Positions 2,536-47,445 of a DNA stretch of 64,000 bases are shown here, one piece after another. Within the stretch, counting starts at the first letter, position 1. Each line of letters opens with the position of its first letter. The notes below the pieces were generated by a model. It worked only from the letters and a program-made list of their open reading frames with translations. It had not been told where the DNA came from and searched no databases. The stretch comes from Escherichia phage JM10, in sequence record PP400777. The stretch is one strand, 5' to 3'. Both the position numbers and the translations under genes were made by a program.

Positions 2536-2959
2536 ATTTAAATTTAATTTTCTGAAGTGCATCAATTGCAGCCAAACGTCCTTGTTCACTTTTAACTGTA
2601 ATGACCACATCGCCTGATACGATCACCGAACCATCAACAAATTCTATAGAGCCTTTTTTGAAATCGACAGCTGTATCTGGTTCCTGAACTTCTTCAAAGA
2701 ATTTAAATTCTGCACCATAAAGCAGAATATCACCTTGCATACTATGAATAGTTCGGCCATAATCGCCTACGGCTTCTACAGCAATAACCGAAACACCGTA
2801 ACCAATCATCTCTTCCACAATAAAATCTTTGGACAATAAAGTAGTATGCAGATTAGTATTAAGACGTTTACCAGTCGTATTAAGAATTCTCAAGAAATTA
2901 TCTTCCTGTCCTTTGATAATACGATATTTCTTACCAACTTCAAAACCTTTAAAAGCCAT
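2534..2959 (-). CDS. hypothetical early protein, 141 aa (position and size resemble T4 goF; not verified)
   Basis: ORF track; ATG preceded by SD; followed by terminator. Confidence 0.6.
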   Translation of the reverse strand: MAFKGFEVGKKYRIIKGQEDNFLRILNTTGKRLNTNLHTTLLSKDFIVEEMIGYGVSVIAVEAVGDYGRTIHSMQGDILLYGAEFKFFEEVQEPDTAVDFKKGSIEFVDGSVIVSGDVVITVKSEQGRLAAIDALQKIKFK

Positions 2960-2962
2960 AAT

Positions 2963-3141
2963 TAACCCTTCTTAAGTAAGTCGTAAAAACCACCATTCAC
3001 ATGTTTAGGAGCAGAAACCCGACGAGTAGACAGATGATGACATTCAGGGCAAACATCGTTTTCTCGTTCAGAAATTCTTTTAATTTTTTCATATTCATGA
3101 CCACAATCTTCAGATTGACATTTATAGTCGTATAACGGCAT
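2963..3141 (-). CDS. small zinc-ribbon protein, 58 aa (FmdB-like CxxC...CxxC)
   Basis: Hand translation [59 protein letters not shown]; start overlaps upstream stop (TAATG); below ORF-track size cutoff. Confidence 0.55.
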
Positions 3142-3572
3142 TATTGTTCCTTAAAATGTGCTTTCAACATTTGATACAAAGACCATGCCTGGTCGTTATT
3201 TTCGATAGTAATTGTCATCACCGGAAATTCAGACAATTCGTCAAGTTCACCAGAATCTTGCTCTTCGGACGCTTGATACGGATTTCCCACTTCGTCAAAG
3301 AACTCTGCTTCATTCGTGGAGAGCCAGATAAAGTTTTCATCAAGAATATCACCGCCTGTTGCGTATCCAACCGTGCCAGTAGATGTCACAATTTTAGTAG
3401 GACGACCAAGATGGTCAACATCTAATACTTTAAATGGTTCCATGCCAAGACGTCGTGCATAAATCCCATTATCAGTGTGGCCTTTAATAAACTCTTCTTG
3501 GGCACGTTTATCTTTAAATTGGTACCATGAGTTAACGCGGAATTTATTAGCCATTAGTAAGTTTCCTTCCAA
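3141..3572 (-). CDS. hypothetical protein, 143 aa
   Basis: ORF track; tightly packed minus-strand operon. Confidence 0.55.
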
Positions 3573-3778
3573 TAAGTTGTACCGTTTTCAGTGATTTCAC
3601 GGAAGATACCATAGATAGGCATTTCATCACCGAGTTTTTCGTAAACGTAAACCACTTCAGTGTAGCATAAAAATTCAGTCCAGTTTTTCTGTACAACAAC
3701 TAAATCAGGATTAAACAGAACATCTTCAAACTCATCGATGTTTGAATCAGTAGTTACGTTTTTAATGATTTGACGTTT
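3554..3778 (-). CDS. hypothetical protein (start adjusted to MKRQIIKN; track ORF 3554..3826 extends into the SD/promoter)
   Basis: N-terminal ...SKQEENIM is a translated SD (GAGGAG). Confidence 0.45.
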
Positions 3779-3838
3779 CATAATATTCTCCTCTTGTTTT
3801 GATATGTCTATAGTATCATAGACCATAGTTGTTGTACA

Positions 3839-4363
3839 TCATTTTAGCAAAATAAAATCAACTTGTTCCGCCAATGAACGTCTGAACATTAATTGACAAC
3901 TTCCGAGGATGAAATCAGGTGCTTCATAGACCGCGATGTAGTATCCTTTAGCTTTCAAGAGTTCAACATCCACCTGGTCATCAAACCATGCATAAACCGC
4001 GTCAACACTTTCAAATCCAAAATAGAACCCTTTAGCCCAATCTTCACTCAATTCAAATGTGTGCTCAATTCTATAGTATCTTAAGATATTTTGTTCAAGG
4101 AGTTTGTCTTCATTTACTGTAGGACGATTAGGGACATTATAGTTGTCGCCGTGATGGTAGAAGTTACCTGAGAGTATTCCATGCTTATCAAGGAACTCCC
4201 ATGTTTCTTCAGAGTTGTCGGTGCCCGACCAACCGTATGGCGAACGAGGTTCTTTATTCCAAGAGGTTTCCCAAATTCTGACGGCTTTACCATCTTCGAT
4301 AGCAATTCCTGGTAATGATTCACGTTGAGTACAAAAACTACGTTCTACGCGGTAAACTAACAT
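3839..4363 (-). CDS. hypothetical protein, 174 aa
   Basis: ORF track; own early promoter and SD. Confidence 0.6.
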   Translation of the reverse strand: MLVYRVERSFCTQRESLPGIAIEDGKAVRIWETSWNKEPRSPYGWSGTDNSEETWEFLDKHGILSGNFYHHGDNYNVPNRPTVNEDKLLEQNILRYYRIEHTFELSEDWAKGFYFGFESVDAVYAWFDDQVDVELLKAKGYYIAVYEAPDFILGSCQLMFRRSLAEQVDFILLK

Positions 4364-4389
4364 ATTATTCTCCTCTGGTTGATATAGTT

Positions 4390-4418
4390 ATATTACCAAA
4401 ACCAGAGGAGAAGTAAAC
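4390..4418 (-). promoter_or_regulatory. sigma70-type early promoter (-35 GTTTAC, 17 nt, -10 TAATAT) with spacer/SD inverted repeat
   Basis: Minus strand GTTTACTTCTCCTCTGGTTTTGGTAATAT; spacer CTCCTCTGGTT complementary to AACCAGAGGAG at the SD. Confidence 0.6.
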
Positions 4419-4422
4419 AACT

Positions 4423-4842
4423 TTATGCGAAAGCAGCTGGGCTATATTTTTTAATTTGGAATTCAGGAACTACCATGAACTGTCCAGCGAAAACGATGTT
4501 ATAAAGCTTAACACCATCTTCTACCCAACGGTCGCTAATAAATCCAGCGATTTGCTTAGTTTTCCACGGTGTTCCATCAGTTGCCGCAGCAATAGTGAAT
4601 TCATGGTCTTTTTCAACAGAAACTGATCTGCATAGTCCCCATTTGAACGCTTTTTCTTCTGGTTCAATGAACTGGCTTGAGACGTAGCCAATATTACCAT
4701 TAGCATCACGAACTTTAACTTGGTTATGACCAAAAACCGGATCACTCACAGAAAGAACTTCAACCAACTTACCGGCAACTTTAGAGCGAGAAGCAACAGA
4801 TACATATACGTAATCACCTGTAGAGAGATTTACAATATTCAT
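4423..4842 (-). CDS. hypothetical early protein, paralog 1 of a tandem triplet (motB-region family?)
   Basis: C-terminal block ISDRWVEDGVKLYNIVFAGQFMVVPE shared with the next two genes. Confidence 0.6.
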   Translation of the reverse strand: MNIVNLSTGDYVYVSVASRSKVAGKLVEVLSVSDPVFGHNQVKVRDANGNIGYVSSQFIEPEEKAFKWGLCRSVSVEKDHEFTIAAATDGTPWKTKQIAGFISDRWVEDGVKLYNIVFAGQFMVVPEFQIKKYSPAAFA

Positions 4843-4851
4843 AATAATTCC

Positions 4852-5307
4852 TTAAGCTTTACGAGGAGACACATAGCGAGTGATTTCAGATTCTTTAACA
4901 ACTCGGAAGTCACCTAAGAATACGATATTGTATAACTTTTCACCATCTTCAACCCATTGGTCACTAATGAAGCCACACATAGTATCAGTTTTGCTTGGAT
5001 AGCCGTATTCATCGATGAAGTCAAATTCTTTATCAGTCTGGAATTCAACACCTTTACACAAGGCCCATTTGAACTGTACATTAGGCTCAGTAGAAGCAAA
5101 AGCACCACTCACACGAGTTTCCAGGAATTTAGGACTTACGTAAGCGTACTGAGTATCCTGATGTCCAAAACTAGGAATGATTCGAACTTTAACTTCTTTA
5201 ATACGTCCCATGCCATTAGTACGAAGTCCTACTACTTCAACCAGCTTTCCTGCAGCTTTAGAACGAGACGCTGTCGATACACGTTTAATTTCACCAATAT
5301 TAATCAT
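4852..5307 (-). CDS. hypothetical early protein, paralog 2 (start adjusted to MINIGEIKRV)
   Basis: FISDQWVEDGEKLYNIVFLGDFRVV; track ORF N-terminus translates the promoter. Confidence 0.6.
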   Translation of the reverse strand: MINIGEIKRVSTASRSKAAGKLVEVVGLRTNGMGRIKEVKVRIIPSFGHQDTQYAYVSPKFLETRVSGAFASTEPNVQFKWALCKGVEFQTDKEFDFIDEYGYPSKTDTMCGFISDQWVEDGEKLYNIVFLGDFRVVKESEITRYVSPRKA

Positions 5308-5337
5308 ATTTTTTCTCTCTTTGTTTAAGTTGAATTC

Positions 5338-5367
5338 ATTATACTCCATCCATCCTTGGATGTAAAA
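5338..5367 (-). promoter_or_regulatory. early promoter (-35 TTTTAC, -10 TATAAT)
   Basis: Minus strand TTTTACATCCAAGGATGGATGGAGTATAAT. Confidence 0.55.
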
Positions 5368-5369
5368 CA

Positions 5370-5864
5370 TTAATTAAGAATATTAACTACTGCACTACGT
5401 GGAACAACACTAAAATCACCAGCATGAACAACGTTAATAAGTTCAACACCATCTTCAATCCACTGATCAGTTACCCATCCACTCACTGGACCTGCGAACG
5501 GACGTCGAATTGAAACAGCTTTACACAACAAATCAGTAGGCTCAATAGGCTTAATCAGAGTACCGTACATACAAGCGATATCCATATCAATACAGATGTC
5601 TTTAACGGGTTCTACTTCTTCAATAAACAGTTCAAAGTCGGTGCTTGGAAGGGCGGTAGTAGAAATTGTACCGTATGAATTTTTAATTTCTAAGAATAAC
5701 CAAGGGCCTTCCGTTTGTTTGATGAAGTTAACAATAGTGAAACTATTACCTTGAGTGGCACCTAAAATTTCACAAAACTTTTCATAAGCTCGCACTGAAG
5801 CACCGTACCAGTTGATTTGTTTTTCGTCTTTCAGGATGTAAGTAGCCGTAGTATTGATATTCAT
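5370..5864 (-). CDS. hypothetical early protein, paralog 3 (start adjusted to MNINTTATY)
   Basis: WVTDQWIEDGVELINVVHAGDFSVVP. Confidence 0.6.
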   Translation of the reverse strand: MNINTTATYILKDEKQINWYGASVRAYEKFCEILGATQGNSFTIVNFIKQTEGPWLFLEIKNSYGTISTTALPSTDFELFIEEVEPVKDICIDMDIACMYGTLIKPIEPTDLLCKAVSIRRPFAGPVSGWVTDQWIEDGVELINVVHAGDFSVVPRSAVVNILN

Positions 5865-5894
5865 AATGTTTTCCTGTTTGGTTAAGATAGAAAG

Positions 5895-5924
5895 ATTATA
5901 CTCCAACCATCCTTGGATGTAAAC
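5895..5924 (-). promoter_or_regulatory. early promoter (-35 GTTTAC, 18 nt, -10 TATAAT)
   Basis: Minus strand GTTTACATCCAAGGATGGTTGGAGTATAAT; same spacer as promoters at 5338 and 47417. Confidence 0.6.
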
Positions 5925-5929
5925 TGGTT

Positions 5930-6607
5930 TTATCGCTGTTTTACACTTAACGGGTCAGGATTCTCAGGGACATCTTCAAGGCCAAGCGCATAACGCTGAG
6001 CATATTTTAACATCAAAATATCTTTAGCACAATCATGAATACTATCATGGGCAACGAATCCTTTTAGCGTACCCATCGGTAATGGACACATACTTAATCC
6101 TCGTGTCAACGAGTAAGCTTCGATTGCCGTACGAATATCGCGTTGAGCCCAGAATTTAACCGGTTCTAATTTATCAGTATCAATCTCTGGTTCAAGAACA
6201 CCTTCATCACGATAGAGGTCACGAATCAAATCGACCAATATTGGGAAGTCAAAGCTCATACCACGGCACCACATCTGTGATTTCCATTGGTCAACTTTAT
6301 TAGCTCGGCAATAGTCTAAAAAGATTTTAATGCCTTCAAGCGTAGTGACATCATCTTCAGACGGAGCCAGGTTTTTACGCGCTTCAGCCGATTGTTCTTT
6401 CCACCATTTCATAGTGGATTTAGCGAAAACTCGCTTCCCTTTCTGAGAAGCTAAATTAAATTTAATTCGCTTACCTCGTTGAACAAGTTCTTCAAATGAT
6501 TCAACAACTTCAGGGTCGGAATTATATGCAATAACCGCAAGGTCAATAACAGCCGCTTTTGATGTATTGCCGAATGTTTCAAAATCTATAATAACATCAG
6601 TGCTCAT
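5930..6607 (-). CDS. dexA: exonuclease A (DEDD-type 3'-5' exonuclease)
   Basis: 225 aa; N-terminal VIIDFETFG; T4 synteny next to dda. Confidence 0.8.
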   Translation of the reverse strand: MSTDVIIDFETFGNTSKAAVIDLAVIAYNSDPEVVESFEELVQRGKRIKFNLASQKGKRVFAKSTMKWWKEQSAEARKNLAPSEDDVTTLEGIKIFLDYCRANKVDQWKSQMWCRGMSFDFPILVDLIRDLYRDEGVLEPEIDTDKLEPVKFWAQRDIRTAIEAYSLTRGLSMCPLPMGTLKGFVAHDSIHDCAKDILMLKYAQRYALGLEDVPENPDPLSVKQR

Positions 6608-6616
6608 AATTTTCTC

Positions 6617-7930
6617 TCAAATAAAATGGACGTCAAACCGACCACGAGTTGTGCCGACATACAATAACTGTTTAGCTAATTCTGAATCGGCATAATGGAT
6701 ACACGGCGTATAAACAAAGGCCGTGTCAACAGACATACCCTGGGCCTTATGGAAGGTTGATACTGGTAGTGCCTTCACCTTAGTGAACATACGTTTAGCA
6801 TCCCAGAATTCGCTCCATGGAGCTTTACCACCTTTATTCCAGAATTTGTATGTTTCTGCGGTCTTAGCCAAAAACAAATTGAATTTATAAAGCTCTTCTT
6901 CAGAAGAAATAACCTTTATATCTTCGCGGATGTATTCTTCATCATCCCCGTATGTTTCTACTGTAAGATTCCAGTATCGTATCATATATTCGCCTGAAAC
7001 ACCGCGTGCTTTAACGAATGTAGACGTTTCTACAGCGTCTCGAATACGAACGAATTGCCCGTTATTGAAAAGCATTTCGGTCATATTTTTACCATCTAGC
7101 TTATATGTCTTAGTAAATGGCTCTTGTAGAACAATGACCTCGTCTTTAATAAATGGTTTTTCTGTTTCAAGAAGTTTTCGGCGAATAATTGAATTTAACT
7201 TGTCCACCGACTTATTTGTGAATGCCATCATTCGATTTTCGAAAAGGTCTTCAGGAGTTTTAACGATGTTAAAATAGTTCATCATATACGATTTAAGGTC
7301 TGTATATCCGTGAACACCGTGTCCATCAACTACTTTATCGTAAATCCATTTGCCATTACGAATATCAGTCGCAACATCAATAATTGGTGCATTGCTACGT
7401 TTAACTTCTGTAAGGTCGCATTGCACAAAGTCTTTGTGAGTGAAGAAAGGACTTAGATACGCAGTTGATTCGCCTGGGTCTACCGGACGAATCTGGCATC
7501 GGTCGCCGATTCCAATTACTGTACACCATTTAGGGATACTAGCTAACATTATTTTAAACAGAGAACGGTCGCACATTGACGCTTCATCAAATAACAGTAC
7601 ACGACACAAGGCTAAGTCGGGAACCTTTTTCTGTTCAAACAATACGTTTTCTTCGTATGTAGTTGGGTTGATTTTAAGAATGCTATGAATAGTCGATGCT
7701 TCTTGACCCGCAAGTTTGCTTAGAACCTTTTTAGCAGCATGTGTAGGGGCTGCTAAAATAATACCTGATTCTCCGGCAGAAATAAGAGCTTCAACGATGA
7801 ATCTAGTAAGGGTTGTTTTACCTGTACCAGCGGGCCCATTAATAGTTACGTGATGTTTCTTTTCTTTAATAGCGTTCATAACAACGTTGAAGGCGTTTTT
7901 CTGGCCTTCAGTCAAATCATCAAATGTCAT
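6617..7930 (-). CDS. dda: Dda DNA helicase (SF1)
   Basis: 437 aa; Walker A GPAGTGKTT; Walker B LLFDEASM. Confidence 0.9.
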   Translation of the reverse strand: MTFDDLTEGQKNAFNVVMNAIKEKKHHVTINGPAGTGKTTLTRFIVEALISAGESGIILAAPTHAAKKVLSKLAGQEASTIHSILKINPTTYEENVLFEQKKVPDLALCRVLLFDEASMCDRSLFKIMLASIPKWCTVIGIGDRCQIRPVDPGESTAYLSPFFTHKDFVQCDLTEVKRSNAPIIDVATDIRNGKWIYDKVVDGHGVHGYTDLKSYMMNYFNIVKTPEDLFENRMMAFTNKSVDKLNSIIRRKLLETEKPFIKDEVIVLQEPFTKTYKLDGKNMTEMLFNNGQFVRIRDAVETSTFVKARGVSGEYMIRYWNLTVETYGDDEEYIREDIKVISSEEELYKFNLFLAKTAETYKFWNKGGKAPWSEFWDAKRMFTKVKALPVSTFHKAQGMSVDTAFVYTPCIHYADSELAKQLLYVGTTRGRFDVHFI

Positions 7931-38718: not shown

Positions 38719-39086
38719 TTTGCCGCCTTAACAATTTTCAGGTCAACGAATTTTTTCTTACGCTGATTTTTCATACGACGGATAGTCTTTTCAGAGATTT
38801 CATGTTTCTGATAAGCTTTAGATTCAACACCAAATGCAGCAACGTCAAATTCAGAAAGAATATATTGTACTAGAATTTCGCGAATAGAATTACGTCCAAT
38901 TTTCTGGTCGTGTTTTTGCATGATTTCATAAAGACGGAATTCCCACGCGTCAAGAACTTGAGGAGTAACAATATTGCCGGATTCCAGAAGAGCAACAACT
39001 TTATCGAAAGCGAAAGAATTAACTACGTTTTTGATTTTAGTAGACATATTATTTTCCTCGGTTATTTTATTATCCAATGAGAGCAT
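38715..39086 (-). CDS. hypothetical protein, 123 aa
   Basis: ORF track. Confidence 0.5.
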   Translation of the reverse strand: MLSLDNKITEENNMSTKIKNVVNSFAFDKVVALLESGNIVTPQVLDAWEFRLYEIMQKHDQKIGRNSIREILVQYILSEFDVAAFGVESKAYQKHEISEKTIRRMKNQRKKKFVDLKIVKAAK

Positions 39087-39116
39087 TATACTCTGCTCTC
39101 AAGAGTTTGTAAATCG

Positions 39117-46123: not shown

Positions 46124-46428
46124 TATAATGTTCTCTCAAATTTGTGGAAGCATTTACGACATTTCAATTTCAAGTTATCAGTGGTCCAGTTAACCAGTTG
46201 GACTTGGATAGTTCCACATTCCGGACATGGGTGTTTTGCTGCCGATTTGGCAGCATTTTCACGTCGTTCAACCATTTTCATTATTTCGTCCCATGCCGGA
46301 GGAACGAACTCTTCTTCACCGTGGATTTTATTTCTCTGAACAAATTCAATCTTTGAACTATCGTCAATAAACTTAACCAAGCGGTGACTAGTGTTCATAT
46401 CAATATCCTCTAAAAGACGTAGGTTCAT
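46123..46428 (-). CDS. zinc-ribbon protein, 101 aa
   Basis: CPECG...CRKC. Confidence 0.5.
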   Translation of the reverse strand: MNLRLLEDIDMNTSHRLVKFIDDSSKIEFVQRNKIHGEEEFVPPAWDEIMKMVERRENAAKSAAKHPCPECGTIQVQLVNWTTDNLKLKCRKCFHKFERTL

Positions 46429-47378
46429 TATAACACCTCAATGGCATTTCGTAAACCATCCGCTTTCGCATTCAGAGCTTTTAACGATTTAGTCTGTTCT
46501 TTAATCTGAGCTTCGACTTCTTTCAGACGAGATTTGAGATATTCGCGTTCTTCTCTTAAGTTATCAACTTTTTCTGCTTTAGGCTCTTTAATAGGCTTAG
46601 GTTTATACGTATTAGGGTTCTTCAGCTTAATTTGAATACGAGAACTGAATAACATTGAACCGTTATCTTCGGATTCGTCGAACGTTTCAACAACATCCAT
46701 AGTCTCTAACAATGTAATAAGTTTATAAGACAACGAACGAACGGTTTTGTTATGCTTATTAATTTCTTCGGCTTTCATGGTACCGAGATTACGTGAGTAG
46801 TAATAAGGAACCTGGATATCAATTGACAATGATGCGTTACCATTACCAGTTGGTTTGAATACTGCAGTAACCCAATCTTTAACATGAACTTTATTTGTAC
46901 GACCATCACCGCCTGTGAATAATTTACGAGAATGTTTAAAAAGCATATTCACTTGGTTATTGAATTCACAAGCAAATTTATCAGCAAATTTAGTTTCAGG
47001 AATGGTAGAGAACCAATCAGCCAAATGAGCCTTTTTAACATCATTAACAATAGTGAATTCAACCAAATCGGTTTTAGATGTCACAGATTTAATAAAGCTC
47101 GGCTTCATAAAGTTTTTGATGTTATCACGAGCTACAGTAGAAGATAATAAACGAGAACGTTTGAACCATTGAAGCAGTGTCCCTAATGAATGAGAATATG
47201 CATTCTGAGTATCTTTACAGATATGATTTTCTTGGCCTGTGTATGTACCAAAATCGCGAAGAATACCACTTACTACATCTCGGTGTGGAACATCAAATCC
47301 TAGTGCACCAGAAGCGCGCTGAGCATGAACGTTAGCGATAAGACCGGCAAAGTATTCAATGTAATGTGAACGTGTCAT
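46428..47378 (-). CDS. hypothetical protein with C-terminal coiled coil, 316 aa
   Basis: ORF track; own early promoter. Confidence 0.6.
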   Translation of the reverse strand: MTRSHYIEYFAGLIANVHAQRASGALGFDVPHRDVVSGILRDFGTYTGQENHICKDTQNAYSHSLGTLLQWFKRSRLLSSTVARDNIKNFMKPSFIKSVTSKTDLVEFTIVNDVKKAHLADWFSTIPETKFADKFACEFNNQVNMLFKHSRKLFTGGDGRTNKVHVKDWVTAVFKPTGNGNASLSIDIQVPYYYSRNLGTMKAEEINKHNKTVRSLSYKLITLLETMDVVETFDESEDNGSMLFSSRIQIKLKNPNTYKPKPIKEPKAEKVDNLREEREYLKSRLKEVEAQIKEQTKSLKALNAKADGLRNAIEVL

Positions 47379-47416
47379 AATATTTTCCTCTCGTTAAGAT
47401 AGAAAGATTATACTCC

Positions 47417-47445
47417 AACCATCCTTGGTTGTACATCATTCCTTA
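47417..47445 (-). promoter_or_regulatory. early promoter (-35 TGTACA, -10 TATAAT), same spacer cassette as promoters at 5338 and 5895
   Basis: Minus strand TGTACAACCAAGGATGGTTGGAGTATAAT. Confidence 0.5.

Follow-up and report, generated by a model that had tools for sequence, protein, structure and literature searches.

The three adjacent minus-strand genes described here are members of the MotB/MotB-like/MotB.1 early-gene family of T4-type phages, and they stand in the order known from RB69. They were found in a 64,000 nt stretch of DNA from Escherichia phage JM10 (record PP400777), which was analysed at its full length and is referred to below as the window. Taking the account as a whole, we consider it very likely that these genes form the MotB-family array of a Mosigvirus, that the array is served by two early promoters and arose stepwise, and that the promoters were gained or homogenised separately from the genes. 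The source of the DNA is a Mosigvirus-type (RB69-like) relative of T4, and the 2.9 kb around the locus has 96–98 % DNA identity to Mosigvirus genomes, e.g. NHEP10, PhAPEC2 and moskry; one protein matches a protein of phage JM10 at 100 % identity. Along the minus strand the order is dexA, w164 (motB.1-like), w151 (motB), w139 (motB-like), w174 (motB.2-like) and cef (Table 1). An earlier note on this DNA had reported three neighbouring genes of 139, 151 and 164 aa; all were found on the minus strand at these lengths, and the three C-terminal strings that it quoted occur verbatim in w139, w151 and w164. For w151 and w164 the starts used are internal ATGs with ribosome-binding sites before them, lying within longer, mechanically called ORFs. 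The product of w174 is a homolog of MotB.2 (34 % identical to the T4 protein) and has no relation to MotB. The w174 leader contains a strong hairpin structure (-22 kcal/mol, z -4.05), with the promoter -10 element in its loop and with the Shine-Dalgarno sequence as part of its 3' arm; this arrangement is kept in T4, PP01 and JS98 with different arm sequences.

Table 1. Genes and promoters of the MotB-family locus and of the third promoter copy (positions in the window)
Feature	Position	Strand	Description
dda	6617-7930	minus	
dexA	5930-6607	minus	
P(motB.1-like)	5895-5923	minus	TTTACA-N17-TATAAT; spacer TCCAAGGATGGTTGGAG; 11/12 consensus match, exact spacer match
w164	5370-5864	minus	164 aa; MotB.1 ortholog; internal ATG of 178-aa ORF
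P(motB)	5338-5366	minus	TTTACA-N17-TATAAT; spacer TCCAAGGATGGATGGAG; 11/12 consensus match, exact spacer match
w151	4852-5307	minus	151 aa; MotB ortholog; internal ATG of 172-aa ORF
w139	4423-4842	minus	139 aa; second MotB paralog
w174	3839-4363	minus	MotB.2 homolog
cef	3554-3826	minus	
Third promoter copy	47407-47435	minus	TGTACA-N17-TATAAT; spacer ACCAAGGATGGTTGGAG; before unrelated 316-aa gene
316-aa gene after third promoter copy	46428-47378		phrog_1435; no assigned function

The protein encoded by w151 is 48 % identical to T4 MotB (E 7e-41) and 90 % identical to RB69 MotB (P0166), and it matches the Pfam motB family (PF17613) over residues 1–146 with 132 bits. It shares with T4 MotB a layout of two domains, a KOW/SH3-like N-terminal domain followed by the MotB C-terminal domain (CTD), and the signature of the N-terminal KOW-like domain of MotB proper (…VS..SRSKAAGKLVEV…VKVR…YV..KF(L/I)E) was found. 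As in T4, the gene lies between cef and dexA, a position supported by synteny with T4, JS98, PP01 and RB69, and has an early promoter, although the spacer of the T4 motB promoter differs from that in the JM10 window; the predicted sigma-70 early-type promoters are consistent with the early expression of MotB proper. The product of w139 aligns with that of w151 along its whole length (43 % over 145 aa, E 5e-28) and is a more distant, full-length paralog of T4 MotB (37 % identical), scoring 75.8 bits against PF17613. Its AF2 model is a two-domain, all-beta structure (pLDDT 87.7, pTM 0.75), and as the shorter copy it has neither the loop RIIPSFGHQDTQ nor the inter-domain linker. The ATG of w139, with AAGGA before it, lies 9 nt past the w151 stop, and RB69, PP01 and Sf24 have this gene at the equivalent position; whereas T4 has a single motB, these three phages and the JM10 window have this second, shorter copy after motB. 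Since both domains of w139 and w151 align collinearly, the two genes are best explained by plain gene duplication.

Several observations place w164 in the MotB.1 group. Its product is 37 % identical to T4 MotB.1 over 134 aa (E 1e-23), matches phrog_2333 (E 2.6e-82) and scores 36 bits against PF17613 over residues 84–159, and it shares with the T4 protein both the N-terminal domain and the MotB.1-type CTD (PTDLLCKAV..GWVTDQWIEDGVELxNVVHAG) that together define the group. Its orthologs of 164 aa are 95 % identical. A beta-rich N-terminal domain of the MotB.1 type is followed by a disordered linker with the DMDIACMYGTLIKP motif and by the small C-terminal beta-barrel of the MotB family; the AF2 model (pLDDT 78.8) likewise comprises two domains and a disordered linker, and a Foldseek search of BFVD matched T4 P39415 at E 2.6e-9. 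In contrast with T4 MotB.1, which is annotated at 119 aa in the reference, w164 has a complete CTD and the extra DMDIACMYGTLIKP linker segment; furthermore, the w164 gene directly follows dexA and has its own promoter, whereas T4 motB.1 follows motB.2 and has none of its own. In the T4 reference, one extra G ends the motB.1 ORF inside the CTD core, with the remainder of the domain intact in the next frame, and in the RB69 reference two extra T residues produce ORFs of 132 and 29 aa. These truncated forms are confined to the reference records of T4 and RB69 (2 contigs and 1 contig), whilst the intact 143-aa T4-type MotB.1 was present in 256 contigs, with accessions that include a UniRef entry labelled BPT4, and the intact 164-aa form predominates in a cluster of 181 members.

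All three proteins score above the curated gathering threshold of PF17613 (25 bits), and MotB-like PHROG matches were found for the locus proteins. The C-terminal module that they have in common is a small SH3/Tudor/KOW-like beta-barrel of ~55–65 residues with the core (I/V)(S/T)D(Q/R)W(V/I)EDGxxLxN(I/V)V; the columns of D(Q/R)W(V/I)EDG..L.N.V..G.(F/Y).V(V/I) are invariant in the three proteins and across 40 and 26 homologs. It is only in this part, ~55–65 aa at the C-terminus, that w164 resembles the other two (BLAST E 4e-7 against w139 and 2e-6 against w151 at a database size of 1e6, with 36–57 residues aligned). Comparison of the CTDs of the MotB and MotB.1 groups by hhalign gave a probability of 98.2 % and an E-value of 3e-14 over 80 columns, and the strand pattern of the CTD region is alike in the AF2 models of w164 and w139. 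A profile search of PDB sequences returned no solved structure of a relative; its sole match, bL9 at E 0.61, was taken as noise. Judged by Pfam, BLAST and hhalign together, the similarity lies far past chance, which bears out the proposed common ancestry of the three genes. Within the module two types are distinguishable, the MotB type of w151 and w139 having a beta-hairpin insertion and KLYNIVF, and the MotB.1 type of w164 having ELLNVVH. A common C-terminal block behind divergent N-termini, as originally described, is therefore accurate for the block and for w164, the N-terminal domain of which is unrelated to that of w151 and w139, but not for the latter two, which have an N-terminal domain in common (SRSK(A/V)AGKLVEV...VKVR...YV..F(I/L)E).

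Upstream of w164 the -35 hexamer of the promoter begins 7 nt past the dexA stop, and upstream of w151 it begins 3 nt past the w164 stop. The two promoters are identical at 28 of 29 positions, in agreement with the common spacer noted earlier, and their similarity ends just outside the -35 to -10 segment. The accompanying claim that each copy has its own promoter is wrong because w139 lacks a promoter site: two sites only were found, before w164 and w151, and a consensus scan of the minus strand from 4843 to 5337 returned no promoter site for w139. A MotA-type middle promoter was also considered for this gene and rejected, as the TGCTT ~250 nt upstream has the wrong spacing to the -10 element. 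No intrinsic terminator was found on the minus strand. On account of the spacing and the absence of a consensus promoter, w139 is probably co-transcribed with w151, and the likely transcription units run from the first promoter to w164 and from the second to w151–w139, with read-through onward; alternatively, w139 may be served by a promoter inside w151 that is weak or depends on MotA. Exactly three copies of the spacer, CCAAGGATGG(A/T)TGGAGTATAAT, are present in the 64-kb window (0.00 expected in shuffles), counting as the repeat the 22-nt spacer plus the -10 element. Its recurrence before an unrelated gene was confirmed, although the position is 47407–47428, 10 nt off the 47417–47445 given previously, and this third copy is near-identical to the w164 promoter from the -35 to the ATG. 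Neither the phrog_1435 gene behind it nor the upstream neighbour of that gene at 47.4 kb matched a MotB phrog. The two genes flanking this promoter were also considered as paralogs of one another, which was ruled out (BLASTP E 1.7, different PHROGs).

The near-identity of the two locus promoters contrasts with the 47 % DNA identity of w164 and w151, the genes behind them. Between w139 and w151 DNA identity is 55 %, the paralogs overall have 42–55 %, and sliding-window identity peaks at 73–76 % in the conserved cores. The longest identical run among the paralogs is 12–13 nt; recent gene conversion between them was ruled out, as runs are no longer than this and no conversion tract is present. 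Moreover, the promoters of motB orthologs differ in the spacer, which is AACTCTTGGGACCAGAG in T4 and PP01 and TTATCGAGAGCCATGT in JS98, and the PP01 pair of motB and 139-aa gene is close to the JM10 pair (74.5 % protein identity) despite the different spacer. The promoter type itself is found at 2–3 places per Mosigvirus genome and at one in Dhakavirus genomes. As promoter identity far exceeds coding identity and orthologous motB genes have different spacers, the similarity of the promoters is no relic of gene duplication, and the promoter has a history of spread or exchange of its own, separate from that of the genes.

A similar arrangement has been described as promoter-early stem-loops (PeSLs), which Krisch and colleagues proposed to be recombination substrates in the hyperplastic regions of T4-type phages (Arbiol et al., 2010, PMC2839356; Comeau et al., 2014, PMC4122927). 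Like a PeSL, the JM10 cassette is a near-identical, repeated early promoter before unrelated genes in a gene-variable region: a sigma-70-like promoter (TTTACW-N17-TAYWAT) is followed by a Shine-Dalgarno sequence and ATG, three copies in the window flank variable genes, and the gene content and order of the cef–dexA interval vary between genera. In contrast, PeSLs have a stem-loop upstream of the promoter, whereas the JM10 cassette has none and is present in 2–3 copies per genome only. Folding of the 73 nt that lead up to the -35 hexamer gave no significant stem-loop directly before the promoters (z 0.01, -0.61 and +1.57 compared with shuffles), nor was a significant one found across the three repeated promoters. 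The sole symmetry in the repeat is a 6-bp palindrome in the spacer, CA(A/T)CCA-AGGA-TGG(T/A)TG, the two variable positions of which co-vary between copies. It is plausible from these comparisons that the repeated cassette, from early promoter to Shine-Dalgarno sequence, is a candidate substrate for homologous recombination and promoter exchange; the near-identical promoters would then have been acquired or homogenised apart from the genes, by recombination among such cassettes.

For the relatives, copy numbers were taken from individual annotated loci and not from a census of tblastn places per record, which undercounts because the weak match of the w164 type falls under the cut-off. Read from dexA to cef, Klebsiella phage phi1_146055 has a hypothetical gene and MotB (126 aa), i.e. 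one family member, whilst T4 and JS98 (Dhakavirus) have motB.2, motB.1 and motB. The same three genes are followed by a 139-aa paralog and a hypothetical gene in PP01 (Tequatrovirus), and Sf24 (Tequatrovirus) has motB.2, a 164-aa gene of the motB.1 type, motB, the 139-aa paralog and a hypothetical gene. In the Mosigvirus genomes RB69, moskry, APCEc01, PNJ-6, AV111 and p000y, the order is motB.1 type, motB, 139-aa paralog and motB.2. RB69 has been reported to contain two motB copies and one motB.1 (PMC7827196), and its record (NC_004928) lists motB.2, a MotB-like gene of 139 aa, motB of 151 aa, a 29-aa ORF and motB.1 of 132 aa, an order that is the same as in JM10; however, the RB69 reference motB.1 is split by two 1-nt insertions, whereas JM10 has an intact ORF of 164 aa.

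A neighbour-joining tree of the CTDs, built on ~60 columns with no bootstrap, sets the MotB type (w151 and w139) apart from the MotB.1 type (w164), and places w139 as sister to the Mosigvirus-type MotB. Because the N-terminal domain of w164 is unrelated, at least one step in the history of the locus was a domain fusion or swap and not a gene duplication. In the scheme that we propose, the CTD would long ago have diverged into a MotB and a MotB.1 lineage, accompanied by swaps of N-terminal domains, and a later tandem duplication of motB would have given rise to w139.

How far such exchange shaped the locus is a matter on which we are evenly divided: the C-terminal barrel may be a mobile module, and w164 may have come to lie beside motB by module capture, through recombination in the conserved CTD-coding DNA. 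CTDs of the w164 kind are found behind at least four N-terminal architectures (143–145, 164–169, 177–183 and 245–250 aa), and proteins of ~145, ~180 and ~248 aa combine such a CTD, 74–86 % identical to the w164 one, with an unrelated N-terminal domain. In a Klebsiella-phage MotB, furthermore, a KOW-like N-terminal domain is joined to a MotB.1-type CTD, and the chimeric proteins P0148 and P0149 combine the MotB N-terminal domain with a w139-type CTD, although both are known from short assemblies of the metagenome type and the fusions could have arisen during assembly. The dS values of the three genes are 2.5–6 times those of neighbouring dexA in the same phages, which points to a mosaic region. 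Nevertheless, the collinearity of w139 and w151 over both domains means that shuffling would complement duplication and not replace it.

Less well supported is the model put forward in the earlier note, in which two rounds of tandem duplication of a promoter-plus-gene cassette left each copy with its own promoter, whilst its N-terminus diversified under selection for new targets. The genes are indeed adjacent and homologous, two of them stand behind promoters that differ at a single position of 29, and the common ancestry that the model requires holds. On the other hand, the most recent duplicate, w139, is the one without a promoter, the mismatch in identity between promoters and genes is incompatible with joint duplication unless the promoter was renewed later, and the same promoter, identical as far as the Shine-Dalgarno region, precedes the unrelated gene at 47.4 kb. 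Neither do the spacers of motB in T4, PP01 and JS98 fit a promoter inherited with its gene, nor do the two CTD lineages fit repeated copying of one cassette; the N-terminus of w164 is the MotB.1 domain, which phages of other genera likewise have in front of this CTD, and not a diverged MotB N-terminus. As for diversification, dN/dS among orthologs from eight phages, calculated gene-wide, was 0.13 for w164, 0.28 for w151 and 0.15 for w139 (0.017 for dexA), and the ORFs of all three genes are intact in these phages. Such purifying selection indicates that all three are maintained and functional; no positive selection was detected in the gene-wide dN/dS values, although purifying selection measured gene-wide is no argument for or against selection for new specificity. 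As such, the cassette model is largely refuted and we regard it as improbable. That the C-terminal block reflects convergence or chance in short, compositionally similar phage proteins can practically be dismissed, for in spite of the short BLAST alignments of w164 with the other two, the profile alignment, the Pfam scores above the curated cut-off, the retained D-W-EDG-L-N-V-G-F-VV pattern and the matching strand patterns all speak against it.

With regard to function, the early protein MotB of T4 is a tight and nonspecific DNA binder; H-NS and StpA copurify with it, and in vitro it overrides or alters the H-NS footprint. It improves phage fitness, is toxic on overexpression, and when overexpressed leads to the upregulation of 75 host genes, about one-third of which belong to the H-NS regulon (Patterson-West et al., 2018, PMC6070864; Patterson-West et al., 2021, PMC7827196). 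Its relatives have been sorted into four categories with a common C-terminal and different N-terminal domains, MotB proper being Category 1 and the MotB.1 group Category 2, and MotB and MotB.1, which share the CTD, have been suggested to be duplicates, one of the other (PMC7827196). For MotB.1, an LSm-like, five-stranded N-terminal fold has been proposed; under laboratory conditions a T4 motB.1 deletion had wild-type burst size and latent period, and the protein was without effect when assayed with an RNA reporter (PMC12152347). By analogy, the two strong sigma-70 early promoters of JM10 would fire directly after infection, one driving w164 and the other w151 with the abutting w139. The w151 protein would coat DNA nonspecifically and remodel or override H-NS on host DNA, resulting in a better burst size, w139 would be a shortened variant of this activity, and w164 would join a different effector or partner domain, that of MotB.1, to the same C-terminal module. 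We further entertain, as a speculative and rather unlikely extension, that the barrel is a swappable DNA- or nucleoid-docking module carried by at least five N-terminal domains, and that three versions are co-expressed for different nucleoid or RNA targets, possibly as hetero-oligomers. The MotB.1 that has been characterised (119 aa, 13.8 kDa) is truncated by a frameshift, and therefore the natural 143–164-aa protein with its complete CTD could be a candidate for the DNA or H-NS activity not found for the truncated form.

The family, the common CTD, the inferred duplication and the arrangement of two motB genes plus motB.1 in RB69 were already known (PMC7827196), and the GenBank annotation of close relatives already labels these genes as MotB-like. 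The present findings are thus of modest value in three respects: they separate the promoter repeat from the duplication of the genes, they describe a modular family in which one conserved C-terminal barrel stands behind several N-terminal domains, and they show that the motB.1 annotation is shortened in the T4 and RB69 references compared with nearly all relatives, a point that bears on studies of MotB.1.

The C-terminal barrel common to w164 (the MotB.1 ortholog), w151 (the MotB ortholog) and w139 (a second MotB paralog) was found in several other protein contexts. Two chimeric proteins (P0148 and P0149) carry a w139-type C-terminal domain behind a MotB N-terminal domain, and numerous ~180- and ~248-aa proteins (P0026–P0054 and similar) possess a C-terminal domain 74–86 % identical to that of w164, joined to unrelated N-terminal regions. 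Some of the proteins with a w164-like C-terminal domain contain repeats of the N-terminal domain and of the DxDxAxMYGTLIKP motif. As judged from these arrangements, the MotB-family barrel appears to act like a shuffled module.

Within the spacer of the repeated early promoter lies a 6-bp palindrome, CA(A/T)CCA-AGGA-TGG(T/A)TG, the two variable positions of which covary among copies (AACC..GGTT versus ATCC..GGAT). The w164 promoter of the window is a hybrid (ATCC..GGTT) in which the symmetry is lost, as would be expected if copies had recombined or one base had been substituted. A further early promoter, near 39 kb, has a spacer resembling that of the T4 and PP01 motB promoters (AACTCTTGGGACCAGAG) and unlike that of the window's own motB promoter; an inverted repeat lies on both sides of its −10 element, as is also the case for several other early promoters in the compared loci.

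Upstream of w174, the motB.2 homolog, we identified a leader hairpin with arms CUCCUCUGGUU and AACCAGAGGAG, the 3′ arm of which contains the Shine–Dalgarno sequence, whilst the loop holds the −10 element of a weak promoter (TTTACT-N16-TAATAT). This resembles a known T4 device in which the ribosome-binding site is masked in read-through transcripts and open in promoter-proximal ones. T4, PP01 and JS98 show a matching layout ahead of motB.2, the arms there differing in sequence. The motB.2 homolog adjoins cef in Mosigvirus genomes and dexA in T4, JS98, PP01 and Sf24; either motB.2 or the motB.1–motB block has thus changed place, the promoter–hairpin leader moving together with motB.2.

Features of the motB region and related promoters
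Feature	Location	Strand	Details
w151 promoter with spacer palindrome	window 5338-5366		
w164 promoter with spacer palindrome	window 5895-5923		hybrid
Promoter of unrelated 316-aa gene with spacer palindrome	window 47407-47435		
Palindrome, compared locus L001	3076, 3634		
Early promoter	window 39085-39113	minus	TTTACA AACTCTTGAGAGCAGAG TATAAT GCTCTCA; spacer comparison
w174 (motB.2)	window 3839-4363	minus	
w174 leader hairpin	window 4364-4422	minus	12+5 bp, −22 kcal/mol, z −4.05
T4 reference motB.1	NC_000866 (L002) 1700-1870	minus	compared with window 5370-5570
RB69 reference motB.1	NC_004928 (L011) 2877-3373	minus	compared with window 5370-5570

In the T4 reference, one extra G (ATTGGAAGATGG) ends motB.1 early (119 aa), within the WIEDG core, and EDGVELLNVVHAGEYSVVPRSAVVAILN followed by a stop is still encoded in the next frame; in the RB69 reference, two extra T residues break the gene into ORFs of 132 and 29 aa. 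These truncated proteins occur in just two contigs and one contig, respectively. The intact 143-aa T4-type MotB.1 (P0010) is carried by 256 contigs, its accession list including one UniRef entry labelled BPT4, and the intact 164-aa form predominates in a 181-member cluster. The truncations probably go back to errors in early sequencing or to mutations peculiar to particular stocks. The MotB.1 used in published studies is the 13.8-kDa form.

Finally, across window 4423-6607 and the orthologous loci L001, L003 and L006–L010, synonymous divergence was 0.16–0.40 in the three MotB-family genes compared with only 0.065 in adjoining dexA. This higher divergence points to allele exchange or mosaicism limited to the small early genes.
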